Positions 1,100 through 59,392 of a stretch of 63,847 nucleotides of DNA are shown in pieces; the first letter of the stretch is position 1, and each line of letters opens with the position of its first letter. Source of the DNA: Patescibacteria group bacterium (GTDB taxonomy: Bacteria > Patescibacteriota > Patescibacteriia > UBA10025 > JAHIVO01). Made by a program: the position numbers and the translations under genes. The stretch is from assembly GCA_034678405.1 (NCBI GenBank), contig JAXDBW010000011.1:1-63847 (forward strand), read 5' to 3'. The notes under the pieces were generated by a model. That model saw only the letters and a program-made list of their open reading frames with translations, was not told where the DNA came from and did no database searches.

Positions 1100-2341
1100 A
1101 TGAGAACAAAAGTCTTATTTACAATTATTCTAGCATTATTAGCTTGGTTTATTATTTGGCTGTGGTTAGGTAGCGAAACAGAACCCTCAACTCAAATCAC
1201 AAACACGCCTACTGGAGGCCAAATGGAAGTTTACACACATTCTAACCCTAGCTTTTCTTTCGATTATCCTAAAGGCTGGCAGATTGACGAAACGGACTCG
1301 TCGATACTGGTGTATGTTGAAGCAGCGCCACAGGGTCAGCGCTATCAGATAACCATTATAATTAACGAAAATCCAGATTTACTTTCCGCTCAAGAGTTTG
1401 CCATGCAGCAGATGATGGAACTCAATCATCCGGCAACAGTTTCGATAGGCGAAGTTGGTGTTGGAAATTCAGTTGGATATGGCCTGACTAATGTGTTTGC
1501 CAGTGACGAAACAGATGAGAAGCTGTATGTACGACTGGATGATATGATGTTGGTCATTTCGTATCCTACCGCATTTGGCAATGAGTCGGTTTACAATCCA
1601 GAGCAGAATTACCAAGTCGCTCGGGACATAGTGCGGAGCTTCGTAATAAATAGTAATCAGCTGACCAACATACAAACGAATACGAATATTCAAAAGAGTG
1701 ATGTTATCAGCTTCCAGCAGGGGAATCCAAATAGTAAATTATTGTTTTCTCAGGTTGGTCTTGGTGTGGCAATTCCCAATTTTTATTATCAGGTTACAGA
1801 AGATGAGATTTCTCAGTACAACAATGCTCAGGGAGAATACATCCAGCAAAATGCCTGCCGCGGATTGAGCATTAATGCGGAGGACTCATTTAAACTGTGG
1901 TTTAGTTTTGATGAGTTTACGGACCTCTGTGGGACAGAGCGCTTTTTTTCATCAGTTAGTGAGCCTCAGTATGATTTCTCTGATGAAGAGTTTTGTGAAC
2001 AACTCTCGCTGATTCCGAGTCTTGAATATAACGGATGTGGAGCCTTTGCCGACCCGCCAAAAGGGTTCACCGGCTATAGTTATTTCCAATTCATCCCAGA
2101 CTATGGGGGGGATGGAACCGGGACAATTGTGCGTGAGGTATATTTACGGGGGATCAGTGACAAGAGAAAGGAAATTATTGTTGGATACCTGCCATCAGAG
2201 AGCGAGATCTTGTGGATAAAGGAGTATGAATTTGAAGATTATATTAACAGAATTGATGATGGAGAATTTTCTGGATTTCTGTACTCGTCTCAAGCGGTAA
2301 AGACATTTGAGTCAGTCGTCCGCTCTTTGGAAGTAACATGA
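1100..2341 (+). CDS. Hypothetical membrane-anchored protein
   Basis: 413-aa ORF with an N-terminal TM helix (LFTIILALLAWFIIWLWL). The FSFDYPKGWQI motif is typical of PsbP/DcrB-like beta-sandwich domains. No confident family assignment. Confidence 0.55.
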   Translation: MRTKVLFTIILALLAWFIIWLWLGSETEPSTQITNTPTGGQMEVYTHSNPSFSFDYPKGWQIDETDSSILVYVEAAPQGQRYQITIIINENPDLLSAQEFAMQQMMELNHPATVSIGEVGVGNSVGYGLTNVFASDETDEKLYVRLDDMMLVISYPTAFGNESVYNPEQNYQVARDIVRSFVINSNQLTNIQTNTNIQKSDVISFQQGNPNSKLLFSQVGLGVAIPNFYYQVTEDEISQYNNAQGEYIQQNACRGLSINAEDSFKLWFSFDEFTDLCGTERFFSSVSEPQYDFSDEEFCEQLSLIPSLEYNGCGAFADPPKGFTGYSYFQFIPDYGGDGTGTIVREVYLRGISDKRKEIIVGYLPSESEILWIKEYEFEDYINRIDDGEFSGFLYSSQAVKTFESVVRSLEVT

Positions 2342-5379: not shown

Positions 5380-6285
5380 ATGGGACAGGCCGTACGTATT
5401 GAGATGGCACAGGGCGTGCTTGAGTATGCCGATGAGCCATTGTGCACTGACGCGCAGATTGATGCAGCGCTACGAATCGTAGAGCTTCACGAAGACGATC
5501 TGTTTGCGCTATTGCCCCCGGACCATATCTGGAATCGCGGTAAGCGTGAGCATATGTCTCAAGCACACGAGGCTAAGCAGCCAATCGTTGATCAGTTCAG
5601 TCGGGTACTGGCGCCGGTCAATTTCCGGTTGCTGGATTTCATCTTTCGGGTCCATGATCTCGGCCGGGTGTACGAAGGCGCTGTTAAACTCGGCTCGTTG
5701 CCCGAATACCTCACCTACTGTGGTGATCACGCCCGTCAGTCAGTGCTCATCCTCGATGAGTGGGGAGCGCTTGATTGTTTCAGTGAAGAAACGCGTTCCT
5801 TGATCACGTATGTGATCGAGCATCACGTTGGGCCGGAAACGCCGACTCTGCCCGATGCGCCGTCAGCGTCTGCTGCAGCGCAGTACCTCTTCACGTGCCT
5901 GCTGCGAGATTGTGACAAGTACATCATCTTCAGCGAGCGGACGGCGCAGTATCTCCACGATGACCGCAAGCGCGCCGCGGAGATGGAAATCCATCATCTG
6001 CGGGAGCTCGGCCGGATTGAGCCGATTGAATTTCTGGACACGTTCCAGAATCATCGCACGCCCGACAAGACCCAGATGGTCTCATATGAGGCGTACATGT
6101 TGTATTTCCTCTCCTGGATCTACGACGTGAACCTGCCCTCGGTCCTGAAGGCGATCGTGGCCTCGGGCGCTATTGAATTGCTACTGGAGTACTTCCGTCA
6201 GCAGCTCCCGCAGGAGATTGCTGATCAGATCGAATCGTCGGTCACGACGTATCTCGATCGTCATCACGTTTCCTTGGTCGTCTAG
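5380..6285 (+). CDS. HD-domain phosphohydrolase-like protein
   Basis: Start chosen at ATG 5380 (AAGGAG 8 nt upstream). H...HD (RVHDLG)...HH (IEHHVG)...D (RDCDK) spacing fits the HD superfamily. Weak call. Confidence 0.45.
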   Translation: MGQAVRIEMAQGVLEYADEPLCTDAQIDAALRIVELHEDDLFALLPPDHIWNRGKREHMSQAHEAKQPIVDQFSRVLAPVNFRLLDFIFRVHDLGRVYEGAVKLGSLPEYLTYCGDHARQSVLILDEWGALDCFSEETRSLITYVIEHHVGPETPTLPDAPSASAAAQYLFTCLLRDCDKYIIFSERTAQYLHDDRKRAAEMEIHHLRELGRIEPIEFLDTFQNHRTPDKTQMVSYEAYMLYFLSWIYDVNLPSVLKAIVASGAIELLLEYFRQQLPQEIADQIESSVTTYLDRHHVSLVV

Positions 6286-6393
6286 GCGTAAGCGACTTAC
6301 GGAACAAGCCCAGAGTGGTTAGCAGCAATGCTGGCCACTTTTTTTATCTGCTCAAAATCGCTATACTATGGGTACGATTATTGACCCATACAT

Positions 6394-30564: not shown

Positions 30565-30712
30565 TACTTATCATGAGTGAGCCGAGGGACTTGACCCAAT
30601 GACGCTCCGGCAACCCCACCGTCCTTACCAGACAGTGGTAGGTGCTCCGTTCAAGCCCACGTATGTGGGATAGATAAGAGGTGTATATCTCTTATCACAT
30701 AAGAGATTTTTT
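30565..30712 (+). promoter_or_regulatory. SAM-I (S-box) riboswitch with terminator expression platform
   Basis: P1 is CTTATC...GATAAG. Conserved core GAGGGA, GCCC, AUGA, GCAACC, GGUGCU. Terminator ATCTCTTAT-CAC-ATAAGAGAT plus T6 (30687-30712), with 5' arm (30688-30695) complementary to 30673-30680 (P1 3' strand + AG). Lies directly upstream of metK. Confidence 0.88.
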
Positions 30713-56416: not shown

Positions 56417-57535
56417 TTATGCCAGCGGATTACCGACGGCATCGCCGATCAAGTCGCACATGCGACAGGCGACACAGCCCGCCCGATCGGTAGAGGTCAT
56501 GCCAGCCCGTCGCATCTGGTCGGCTGTGTAGTGCAGAACACTGAGGAATTCGGCCCAGTCGGCCTGTGCAGCGAAGGGATACCCGGGGATGTCCTCAAAC
56601 GTCCGCCCGGCTAGCGGGGAGGGGATGACCCCGTAGCTGATAGCGGTGTCAATACCCTCCTTGAGAGAGTCGATCGGCTCCGTCCCGACGACGAAACACG
56701 ACGACACCCGGCCGCGACCAAATACCTCGACTCCGCGCTGGAATGCGTCGAGATACTGAGTGCGGGGACAGAGATTATCCTTGCCGGGGAGGGTACTCCG
56801 GCGAATGGTCGGAGCCCAGCATTCCAGATTCATCATCAGGCTGGCGGCTCCCGCCTCGGCCAGCCGATTGATCCAGCGGAGATCTTCAGGCGGCGTGATT
56901 TCGATGGCAATCGGCAACTGCGGGAACCGCTTGGCGATGACCGTCACGACCGGTACCATGAGCTCCATGCCCCGCCCAGCGTGCAGCGTCATGCCGCCAT
57001 TCAGGGTGAGGCCACCGTACTGGTCCAGGGGAATGCGCTCAAGCGCGGCGATGATGAGTTCCGGTTTTTTTCTGATCAGCCGTGGGTCACGGTTCGGCAG
57101 GGAGCGGTTAATCACGCAGAAGGTGCACTGCGTACCATGGCTGAAGAGCGTGCAGTCTTCGTAGATTGAGCCAGCCAGCTGGCGATTGTGTGCGGTGAGG
57201 ATCTGTGTGATGGGAAACCCGAGCACCTGTCGGTCATACCAATCCGGTGCCGGCAGTACCGTCGCGGTGGTCAGCGTCAGGCTGGCTAGCTGGATAGCGA
57301 TCCGGTTATCGGCCTGGTGTACTGCGGTGAGCACGGTCGGTCGGCTGTGGTAGATGGGCGCATTGACGTAGAGGCCACTGGCCAGTCGCATTTTGCCGCC
57401 GGAGCTGAGGCCTCCTCGTTTGATGCCATGAGGGTTTTGGGCGGCGAAGAGCGCCGCAGTGGCGTCATCCACAGCCATGCCCTCACAGAGCAGCTGTGCT
57501 TTTACGCGCAGTTCAGGGAGTGACACAGTATTCAT
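56417..57535 (-). CDS. Radical-SAM-like Fe-S enzyme with a non-canonical CX8CX2C motif and a C-terminal CxxCxxC motif
   Basis: Start moved to ATG 57535 (AAGGAG 7 nt upstream; MNTVSLPELRV...). Contains ...YEDCTLFSHGTQCTFCVINRS... and a TIM-barrel-like alternating pattern. The C-terminus has GCVACRMCD. Confidence 0.55.
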   Translation of the reverse strand: MNTVSLPELRVKAQLLCEGMAVDDATAALFAAQNPHGIKRGGLSSGGKMRLASGLYVNAPIYHSRPTVLTAVHQADNRIAIQLASLTLTTATVLPAPDWYDRQVLGFPITQILTAHNRQLAGSIYEDCTLFSHGTQCTFCVINRSLPNRDPRLIRKKPELIIAALERIPLDQYGGLTLNGGMTLHAGRGMELMVPVVTVIAKRFPQLPIAIEITPPEDLRWINRLAEAGAASLMMNLECWAPTIRRSTLPGKDNLCPRTQYLDAFQRGVEVFGRGRVSSCFVVGTEPIDSLKEGIDTAISYGVIPSPLAGRTFEDIPGYPFAAQADWAEFLSVLHYTADQMRRAGMTSTDRAGCVACRMCDLIGDAVGNPLA

Positions 57536-57650
57536 GCGAATACTCCTTTTAGTAAATAGTGATGATGGCAACCCACAGTATGGGCCTGTCGATCGGATGA
57601 TTCCGATCGAGCCGTTTGTGAAGGAACAATTGTACGTATTGATCAATGAA

Positions 57651-57815
57651 CAAATACAAAAACACCTCTTCTGAACGAAGAGGCGCGTGGGAAATCGCTA
57701 TACTATGCTAGACCATGTTTGTGTCCACGCGTACAGAGACCCCTTCGTCAGAAGCGGTTGCATGACCACCATGATGGCAGTTGGAGTTCTGTTGTCGCAG
57801 ATATATATTCATAGC
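57651..57815 (-). promoter_or_regulatory. Leader with terminator/antiterminator alternative structures (candidate riboswitch or attenuator)
   Basis: Minus-strand terminator CCTCTTC-GTTCA-GAAGAGG plus UGUUUUUGUAUUUG (57651-57683). The upstream segment GAAGGGG (within 57740-57757) can pair with the terminator 5' arm. There is an additional 7-bp helix, 57684-57690 with 57725-57731. Confidence 0.45.
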
Positions 57816-57821
57816 AACAGC

Positions 57822-57880
57822 ATTCTACAGCAGGAGCCACGCTCTGTCAAATTGACAAACAATATCGAATAGTTTAGGAT
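57822..57880. promoter_or_regulatory. Back-to-back divergent consensus promoters sharing the palindrome TGTCAA-A-TTGACA
   Basis: Minus strand: TTGACA (57845-57850), 17 bp, TAGAAT (57822-57827). Plus strand: TTGACA (57852-57857), 17 bp, TAGGAT (57875-57880). Confidence 0.6.
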
Positions 57881-58096
57881 AGCGATATGAGACATATATC
57901 TAACATTTCCTGGCAAAAAATAAGTCGCCGCTAGCGAAGTAGGTTTTCTATTGTCATGAAAACGCTACTCCCGCCCAGGGCGATTTTTTATTTGTCCTTA
58001 TCTTATTATCTATGGAATTTCAGTTCAAAACCAAAGCAACATTTTTCTGGCGATAGGTCGTCAGTAGCGTTTTTATTCACTCAATCACATATATCT

Positions 58097-59392
58097 ATGA
58101 ACCCAATAACCTTATCGGCACGCGAGGTGCCGACCCACTACTACAATATCCTCGCTGATTTACCCGTCGCGCCCGCGCCACCCCTGCATCCGGGTACGAA
58201 AGAGCCACTCGATCCATCAGCTCTGCTTGGATTGTTTCCGAAGGCACTCGTGGAACAAGAAACTAGTACTGAGCGGAAGATTGAAATTCCTGACGACGTG
58301 CGGACACTCTACCAGCGCTATCGTCCGACACCACTCTATCGGGCTGACCGGCTTGAGCGTGTGCTCGATACACCGGCTCGTATTTATTACAAATACGAGG
58401 GCGCGTCTCTGACCGGCAGCCACAAGCTCAATACCGCTCTGGCTCAGGCCTACTACAATAAGCAGGAGGGCATCACCACCCTGACGACGGAGACGGGCGC
58501 GGGGCAGTGGGGGATGGCGCTGTCGCTCGCGGCAAAACTATTCGGCATGGAGGCGCTCGTGTACTATGTCCGGCTGCATTTCCAGCAGAAACCATATCGA
58601 GTGAGCTATATGCGGATGCTGGGTGCGCAGGTACTCGCCTCACCAAGTCGTCAGACGAAGATCGGGCGGCAGTATCTCACGCAGGATCCAAATCATCCAG
58701 GCAGTCTCGGTATCGCCATCAGCGAAGCGATGGAGGCAGTCCAGGACGAACACACGAAGTACTCACTCGGTAGCGTGCTCAATCACGTACTCCTACATCA
58801 GACGGTGATTGGCCAGGAAGCGATGCGGCAAATGGAAAAAGCCGACGCCTATCCTGACGTCATCTATGGGTGCTTCGGCGGGGGGAGTAATCTCGCAGGC
58901 ATCAGTCTACCGTTTATCGGACAGAGCATTCGACAGAAACGACTAGTCCGAGTCGTGGCAGTGGAGCCGGAGAGTTGTCCCACCCTTTCCCAGGGGAAGT
59001 ATGATTATGACTTCGGGGATACCGCGGCTACTACACCGCTGCTCAAAATGTACTCGCTTGGTGCTGACTTCATTCCGCCGCGGATCCAGGCTGGCGGGCT
59101 TCGGTACCATGGGGCAGCTCCGCTGATCAGTCATCTCGTAGATCAGGGATACATTGAGCACGAAGCCGTTTCTCAAACGGCAGTCATGGAAGCGGCTCAG
59201 CAGTTTGTCCAAGCTGAGGGGATCCTCCCTGCTCCCGAGTCGGCGCACGCCATCCAGGCAGCGATCGACGAGGCACGTCGGTGCCAGGAATCAGGCGAAG
59301 CGAAAACAATCCTGATTAACATCTCAGGCCACGGATTTCTTGACTTGGGTGGGTATCAGGAGTTTCTCGAGGGAAAACTGGTAGTAAAGTAG
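58097..59392 (+). CDS. TrpB2-type (TrpB-like) PLP-dependent enzyme
   Basis: Start moved to ATG 58097 (MNPITLSAREVPTHYYNILADLP). YRPTPLYRADRLE...YYKYEGASLTGSHKLNTA...ETGAGQWG matches the tryptophan synthase beta-2 family. Confidence 0.88.
   Translation: MNPITLSAREVPTHYYNILADLPVAPAPPLHPGTKEPLDPSALLGLFPKALVEQETSTERKIEIPDDVRTLYQRYRPTPLYRADRLERVLDTPARIYYKYEGASLTGSHKLNTALAQAYYNKQEGITTLTTETGAGQWGMALSLAAKLFGMEALVYYVRLHFQQKPYRVSYMRMLGAQVLASPSRQTKIGRQYLTQDPNHPGSLGIAISEAMEAVQDEHTKYSLGSVLNHVLLHQTVIGQEAMRQMEKADAYPDVIYGCFGGGSNLAGISLPFIGQSIRQKRLVRVVAVEPESCPTLSQGKYDYDFGDTAATTPLLKMYSLGADFIPPRIQAGGLRYHGAAPLISHLVDQGYIEHEAVSQTAVMEAAQQFVQAEGILPAPESAHAIQAAIDEARRCQESGEAKTILINISGHGFLDLGGYQEFLEGKLVVK

Follow-up and report, generated by a model that had tools for sequence, protein, structure and literature searches.

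A probable histidine-responsive transcription attenuator in the leader of a Patescibacteria radical-SAM gene

The 63,847-nt stretch of Patescibacteria DNA analyzed here (the window) carries, on its minus strand, a gene for a variant and uncharacterized radical-SAM protein, separated from a divergent TrpB2 gene by a 571-nt intergenic region (Table 1). Two further independent assemblies (three in total) match this region at 100% identity, so the frame of the leader open reading frame (ORF) that it contains is not an assembly error. The radical-SAM protein has a second Cys cluster, and its homologues come almost entirely from Patescibacteria and DPANN archaea. The PDB held no sequence relatives of this protein, and its predicted structure (pLDDT 92) matched only generic radical-SAM barrels, including those of RlmN, MqnE, and LipA, with TM scores of ~0.45. 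Our literature searches found nothing on this enzyme family or on histidine attenuators in the candidate phyla radiation (CPR).

The initial annotation had described the ~280-nt leader of this gene as a terminator/antiterminator switch and as a candidate for an unclassified riboswitch. Each feature it listed (first hairpin, middle helix, intrinsic terminator, and alternative pairing) was found on the minus strand where that annotation had placed it, and the leader length agrees with the location of a sigma-70-type promoter-like site. Two details had to be adjusted. The alternative pairing between the 3' arm of hairpin 1 and the 5' arm of the terminator is real but longer than the claimed 7 bp: the two strands GACGAAGGGG and CCUCUUCGUU pair over 10 bp, reaching into both hairpin loops. 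The 7-bp middle helix is also present, but it encloses a loop of 34 nt, not 33. This middle hairpin is nested within the antiterminator and holds the leader stop codon. Across the 2.2-kb region, we counted nine terminator-like sites against 1.6 expected from shuffled sequences, and the leader terminator is among them.

Table 1. Features of the radical-SAM locus and its leader, in window coordinates
Feature	Positions	Strand	Sequence or description	Basis
TrpB2 gene	58097-59392	+	Divergent from the radical-SAM gene	
Promoter-like site, sigma-70 type	57850-57822	-	TTGACA-17-TAGAAT, 11/12 matches; -35 TTGACA at 57850-57845, spacer of 17 nt, -10 TAGAAT at 57827-57822	Consensus scan
Predicted transcription start	~57816-57814	-	2-4 nt 5' of the leader AUG	Usual spacing from the -10 element
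Leader ORF	57812-57708	-	34 codons, MNIYLRQQNSNCHHGGHATASDEGVSVRVDTNMV, then stop	ORF list; sequence same in two other assemblies
Putative regulatory His codons	57762-57776	-	CAU CAU (57776-57771), GGU GGU, CAU (57764-57762)	
Hairpin 1 (segments 1:2)	57757-57740	-	CCGCUUC (57757-57751), loop UGAC, GAAGGGG (57746-57740)	-6.7 kcal/mol
Antiterminator 5' strand (extended segment 2)	57749-57740	-	GACGAAGGGG	Folding
Middle hairpin	57684-57731	-	CGCGUGG (57731-57725) and CCACGCG (57690-57684)	-10.9 kcal/mol
Leader stop codon	57710-57708	-	UAG	
Antiterminator 3' strand (segment 3)	57683-57674	-	CCUCUUCGUU; terminator 5' arm plus part of the loop	Folding
Intrinsic terminator (segments 3:4)	57651-57686	-	GCGCCUCUUC-GUUCA-GAAGAGGUGU at 57686-57662, then U-rich UUUUGUAUUU	Consensus scan; -15.7 kcal/mol
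Shine-Dalgarno region of the radical-SAM gene	57543-57550	-	AAAAGGAG	
Radical-SAM gene	56417-57535	-	Variant radical-SAM protein, 372 aa	NF045502, 159 bits

The initial annotation had also recorded the 34-codon leader ORF and set it aside for want of a ribosome-binding site (RBS). The ORF is present and has no Shine-Dalgarno sequence, as described, but it carries in-frame tandem His codons and is probably the sensor. From the promoter consensus match, we predict a near-leaderless transcript on which the AUG of this ORF would lie almost at the 5' end.

Two further elements lie between the terminator and the radical-SAM gene. One is a perfect 9-bp inverted repeat, TCGATCGGA-ATCA-TCCGATCGA (57589-57610, minus strand), placed between the terminator and the RBS, which could be an operator or an RNA hairpin. 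The other is a second CAU CAU CAC stretch just 5' of the radical-SAM Shine-Dalgarno region (57532-57573, minus strand). It falls in a possible GTG-started frame of 14 codons, MGCHHHYLLKGVFA, whose UGA overlaps the radical-SAM start codon (AUGA). When the whole leader is folded, GGGUUGCCAUCAU from this stretch pairs with AUGGUGGUCAUGCAACC from the His-codon region of the leader. The homologous locus L001 has one His only at this position. This second stretch could be due to chance, or it could represent a second, translational layer of control.

The opposite side of the intergenic region has small ORFs and hairpins of its own. A divergent promoter-like site, TTGACA-17-TAGGAT (57852-57880, plus strand), would place the TrpB2 transcription start close to the AUG (57887) of a small ORF, MRHISNISWQKISRR, which ends inside a long hairpin followed by a U-run (~57912-57996, within the region 57852-57998, plus strand). 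Both the end of this ORF (WQKISRR, then stop) and the long hairpin are conserved in L018, and the A-run/U-run stem looks like a bidirectional terminator. Downstream, the short ORF MEFQFKTKATFFWR (58012-58064, plus strand) starts 85 nt before the TrpB2 ATG; both its Trp codon and its stop fall within the 5' arm of a hairpin that resembles a terminator, CUGGCGAUAGGUCGUCAG, which is followed by UAGCGUUUUU. Peptides of this type are kept in other Patescibacteria TrpB2 loci, namely MKFIFKTKATFFWRDCRCIRIF in L018, MKKYYFKNKAREYWRESIHLLIIKK in L161, and MAKKYLFKNRAQEFWPPST in L187, each ending at a stop codon. None was found in the other 78 TrpB2 loci that we retrieved, nearly all of them non-Patescibacteria, and a copy with a frameshift may be present in L145, a Parcubacteria TrpB2 locus. 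As its conservation extends past the Trp residue, the peptide could be a Trp-sensing leader or an arrest peptide. Elsewhere in the window, a SAM-I (S-box) riboswitch at 30565-30680 (plus strand) scored 61.6 bits, above the Rfam gathering score; thus, this organism uses known riboswitch classes.

For comparison, a profile-based scan gathered ~60 loci encoding the radical-SAM protein, and we analyzed ~25 Patescibacteria leaders; a single-protein scan of genomes for the gene had matched nothing. The locus of the closest homologue (L001, 87% identity) includes 35 nt of upstream sequence only and could not be used as a close comparator. Most bacterial loci have the radical-SAM gene preceded, on the same strand, by a gene for a 95-aa protein of the TrpR/YerC family, which is HisR, a repressor with histidine as its co-repressor (PMC9413887). 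Where hisR is present, a terminator nearly always lies between it and the radical-SAM gene, and 5' of the terminator is either a short ORF or a C-terminal extension of hisR that encodes His-His or His-His-His. Archaeal loci of the radical-SAM gene do not have this arrangement of hisR, leader, and terminator.

Tandem His codons are the sole conserved coding feature among the related leaders. His-His doublets occur in 21 of the 25, whereas no other doublet is found in more than 6 of 25, and His accounts for 12.8% of the last 22 residues before the stop. Both CAU and CAC are used, and the remainder of each leader peptide is unrelated, as illustrated by MNYRSNNQSHHQKNSSVLKRLL (L018), MNYSIIINNNHHKTLLC (L011), MINYNSYIQNHHQQAPLH (L002), and MTIQNLFAKTYHHHISPSLGEVD (L019), each followed by a stop codon. 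The window ORF, which begins with MNIYLRQQNSNCHHGGH, fits this pattern, and L047 is arranged as the window is, with a promoter, a leader (MNFKFATNRLHSHHHRFSSIGKRTC, then stop), a terminator, and the radical-SAM gene. The His codons always lie within an open frame. At eight to nine loci (about a third), the upstream hisR-like gene supplies this frame as its C-terminal tail, ending in KQVHHSQALR in L009 and LNQLHHHASAVSPAGSDA in L020, so translation of the codons is assured there. With in-frame tandem His codons as the invariant feature, the leaders point to ribosome-mediated attenuation. Another pair of His-His codons before a terminator in the window (6262-6341, plus strand) belongs to the ordinary C terminus of a 317-aa protein, and we judged it to be a chance occurrence.

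Across loci, changes in the terminator 5' arm are accompanied by changes in its pairing strand; for example, GAGAAAGGG pairs with CCCCUUCUC, GAAGGGGUU with AACCCCUGC, and GCCGGCGGG with CUACCGGC. The window-like subgroup proved too heterogeneous when aligned with MAFFT, with only three pairs recovered by RNAalifold, and we therefore tested co-variation by permuting duplex energies and by analyzing a better-aligned subgroup. Mean duplex energies were -8.5 kcal/mol for cognate and -6.6 kcal/mol for noncognate strands, and none of the 20,000 permutations did as well as the observed pairing; when the test covered 25 loci, 6 of 20,000 did. For the well-aligned subgroup of seven leaders, the RNAalifold consensus was the antiterminator, with 24 pairs and 86% of cells paired. 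More than half of these pairs (13 of 24) had changed on both sides, no shuffled alignment among 500 did as well, and slid controls were 40 to 55% paired. Covariation in the upstream regions of homologous genes was a check that the initial annotation had proposed, and here it showed the antiterminator varying with the terminator 5' arm. The terminator/antiterminator switch is thus supported both within the window and by co-variation in its relatives.

We built a covariance model (R1) from the seven subgroup leaders, with the window sequence excluded. R1 finds other members at the expected positions, with scores of 21 to 36 bits for L018, L011, and L009, and it found two previously missed members, L044 and L050, both with His-His-His. 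At default filters it missed the window copy; with filters off, this copy scored 7.7 bits (E = 0.13 in 801 nt) and aligned over the full model in the right register. The low score marks the window element as a divergent member of the group, assigned by its architecture and by its position before an orthologous gene.

The spacing of the His codons is consistent across the leaders. Counted from the last His codon (first base), the antiterminator 5' strand begins 13 to 21 nt downstream in 24 of 25 loci and 15 nt downstream in the window. The 13-nt mask used in folding partly sets the lower end of this range, but for most loci the same helices appear when no mask is applied. In ~20 of the 25, the stop codon falls within the antiterminator 5' strand or immediately after it. 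In 23 of 25 loci, simulating a ribosome at the His codons left 60% or more of the terminator 5' arm sequestered, and in 19 of 25, simulating it at the stop codon left the terminator intact. The window differs from most relatives in the position of its stop codon, 39 nt beyond the point where segment 2 starts and, like those of L051 and L052, 24 nt short of the terminator. Its ribosome-at-stop simulation depends on the sequence bounds: with one set, hairpin 1 and the terminator form, and with the other, the terminator is lost to a helix that bridges the masked stretch. We consider such bridging around a ribosome physically unlikely. In most of the loci, the predicted geometry of His codons, antiterminator, and stop codon fits the footprint of a ribosome.

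Genes of histidine metabolism surround the radical-SAM gene in several relatives. It is followed by hisS in L019, L036, and L059 and preceded by hisA-hisF-hisIE in L046, and a HisG-like gene lies between it and hisR in L014 and L054. Scanning for hisR-like genes revealed the same design of leader and terminator in Buchananbacteria and other lineages, where this leader type also precedes hisG (L107 and L119), hisI followed by a gene for a PLP enzyme (L089), and another radical-SAM gene (L137). This neighborhood matches the expectation for a histidine-responsive element. The enzyme gene itself is linked to hisR, hisS, hisG, and hisA/F/IE; any role of its product in histidine metabolism is putative.

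Several other observations concern these neighborhoods. Palindromes resembling the HisR operator occur in promoter regions, in L018 at 1740-1800 and in L016, L031, L019, and L049 between hisR and the leader. The palindrome in L018 is GTGTTTTAATACATTAAAACAC, with a TTTA-N6-TAAA core as in PMC9413887, and that in L016 is TGTATTAACGTGTTAATACA; neither is present in the intergenic region of the window. Between the attenuator and the radical-SAM gene of L011, a tRNA-like match (1122-1211, plus strand) scored 26 bits, below the gathering score of 29. The flanking TrpB2, Elp3-like, and CYTH proteins are 79 to 87% identical between the window and L018/L065 over full-length matches, whereas identity between the window and L018 drops to 59% for the radical-SAM protein, and both hisR and a 59-aa ORF are missing from the window. 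This difference suggests that the segment was replaced or rearranged.

We consider it likely that the leader is a ribosome-mediated (leader-peptide) transcription attenuator that reads the supply of histidyl-tRNA. From its sequence features, their conservation, and their co-variation, we infer the following course of transcription start, leader translation, stalling, and termination. Transcription would begin a few bases 5' of the AUG of the 34-codon leader ORF. When charged tRNA-His is scarce, the ribosome would stall on CAU-CAU-GGU-GGU-CAU, and its footprint would cover segment 1 of hairpin 1. The freed segment 2 (GACGAAGGGG) would then pair with the 5' arm and loop of the terminator (CCUCUUCGUU), with the middle hairpin nested within, and this antiterminator would block the terminator and allow the radical-SAM gene to be transcribed. 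When His-tRNA is plentiful, the ribosome would reach the stop codon, and segment 2 would be either covered by it or recaptured by segment 1 behind it. The terminator would then form, and transcription would stop ~115 nt 5' of the radical-SAM RBS.

The window leader could instead be a decaying relic, that is, an old hisR terminator with other leftovers that persisted without a regulatory role once hisR was lost. Such decay would fit the lack of hisR here, as opposed to its presence in the syntenic relative L018, as well as the low covariance-model score. It would also fit the position of the UGA usually found in the hairpin 1 loop, which is out of frame in the window, so that the ORF extends to 34 codons. 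However, a near-consensus promoter stands directly 5' of the leader AUG, and the leader still has its His codons as well as an unbroken antiterminator and terminator of 10 bp each. The departures from the usual arrangement also have counterparts among the relatives, as L047 likewise lacks hisR, and the stop codons of L051 and L052 are similarly distant from the terminator. We regard decay as unlikely.

Termination might also be set in trans, by a HisR-like protein or, in a T-box-like manner, by uncharged tRNA-His, either of which would bind the CAUCAU region or hairpin 1. The 64-kb window contains no HisR gene, and its intergenic region contains no TTTA-N6-TAAA box, although a HisR-like gene is linked to the leader in most loci. 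Pairing between the His codons and the tRNA-His anticodon is conceivable, but the leader has neither an Rfam match to the T-box nor a T-box sequence. A trans-acting factor would also fail to explain why the His codons are in frame and why the stop codon lies where it does, and we find this explanation quite improbable.

According to the riboswitch proposal of the initial annotation, a small molecule such as histidine or SAM would bind the leader RNA and shift the balance between terminator and antiterminator. That annotation had matched the leader to none of the aptamer classes it considered, and the Rfam scan it proposed agreed: nothing reached the gathering score in the leader, and permissive searches (E ≤ 10 for 57300-58300, E ≤ 1 for 12 related loci) returned no relevant match, only sub-threshold chance matches. 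While the missing family leaves room for a new class, and mutually exclusive folds exist in a leader that folds better than shuffled sequence (whole-leader z-score, -3.8), the comparative evidence runs against ligand binding. Across leaders, only the His codons, the U-run, and the arms that complement each other are conserved. Both the length and the sequence of the middle region change freely from locus to locus, and thus there is no aptamer-like core, whether a conserved unpaired core or a junction. The invariant motif is instead a pair of in-frame His codons, present even when it falls within the tail of a protein gene, and the use of both CAU and CAC fits decoding rather than contacts between RNA and ligand. 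The riboswitch proposal is therefore not supported, and we rate it as highly improbable.

That the His-His peptide serves as the precursor or substrate of the radical-SAM enzyme, as a ribosomally made and modified peptide, is hardly credible, even though a short ORF adjoins a radical-SAM gene with a second Cys cluster, because the same leaders precede hisG and hisI, about a third form part of the HisR tail, only the His residues of the peptides are conserved, and a terminator stands between the peptide ORF and the enzyme gene.

Reading the leader as a histidine attenuator offers, in place of a candidate new riboswitch, a mechanism that is testable and has stronger support. No earlier description of an amino acid attenuator in the CPR came up in the literature we searched, which would make this one the first. 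It also provides a functional lead, in that a radical-SAM family conserved in CPR and DPANN, adjoining hisR, hisS, hisG, and hisI, is apparently under histidine control. The His codons in the hisR tail suggest an unusual economy, with the repressor ORF doubling as the attenuator leader. More tentatively, and with greater doubt than we attach to the attenuator itself, Patescibacteria may possess a histidine regulon of their own, marked by hisR and a His-codon attenuator. At about a third of loci, the last repressor codons would do the sensing in such a regulon, with one ORF serving as repressor and leader peptide, and the CPR/DPANN radical-SAM enzyme would have an unrecognized role related to histidine or tRNA-His.

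Attenuation of this kind is already known from enterobacterial hisL and from predicted Firmicutes His-leaders; what is new here is that it would occur in Patescibacteria, that the leaders bear no sequence relation to those already known, that they are coupled directly to hisR (including sensing codons that are the last codons of hisR), and that the target is an uncharacterized radical-SAM family. Like hisL (RF00514), the window leader combines a short ORF containing tandem His codons with alternative 1:2, 2:3, and 3:4 hairpins and an intrinsic terminator, and in the mechanism proposed here, a ribosome stalled at the His codons would likewise free segment 2 for the antiterminator. The two differ in that the Patescibacteria leader has no sequence similarity to hisL, nor does it match the Rfam His_leader covariance model, and it has two to three His codons (2+1 in the window) instead of the seven in E. 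coli hisL. The middle hairpin is nested in the antiterminator, the start in the window is predicted to be near-leaderless, and the target is a radical-SAM gene of Patescibacteria rather than a his operon.

The His-leaders of Firmicutes, predicted by comparative genomics in the Bacillus cereus group, Peptostreptococcaceae, and Erysipelotrichales (PMC9413887), are leader peptides as well, with three to five consecutive His codons just before the attenuator and with antiterminator and terminator hairpins. They occur in lineages without HisR (PMC9413887), whereas here the attenuator lies directly 3' of hisR in most loci, and, unlike in Firmicutes, the His codons are the last hisR codons in about a third of loci. 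The leaderless Cys-rich short ORFs of mycobacteria, reported to act as attenuators (bioRxiv 10.1101/834739), are similar in having an ORF at or near the 5' end of the transcript, no Shine-Dalgarno sequence, and codons that sense one amino acid; they belong to another phylum and sense another amino acid, and the leaderless start of the window ORF is a prediction. Finally, the E. coli trp leader is comparable in that it has only two regulatory codons and a stop codon near segment 2, although its codons are for Trp instead of His and the two are not related in sequence.
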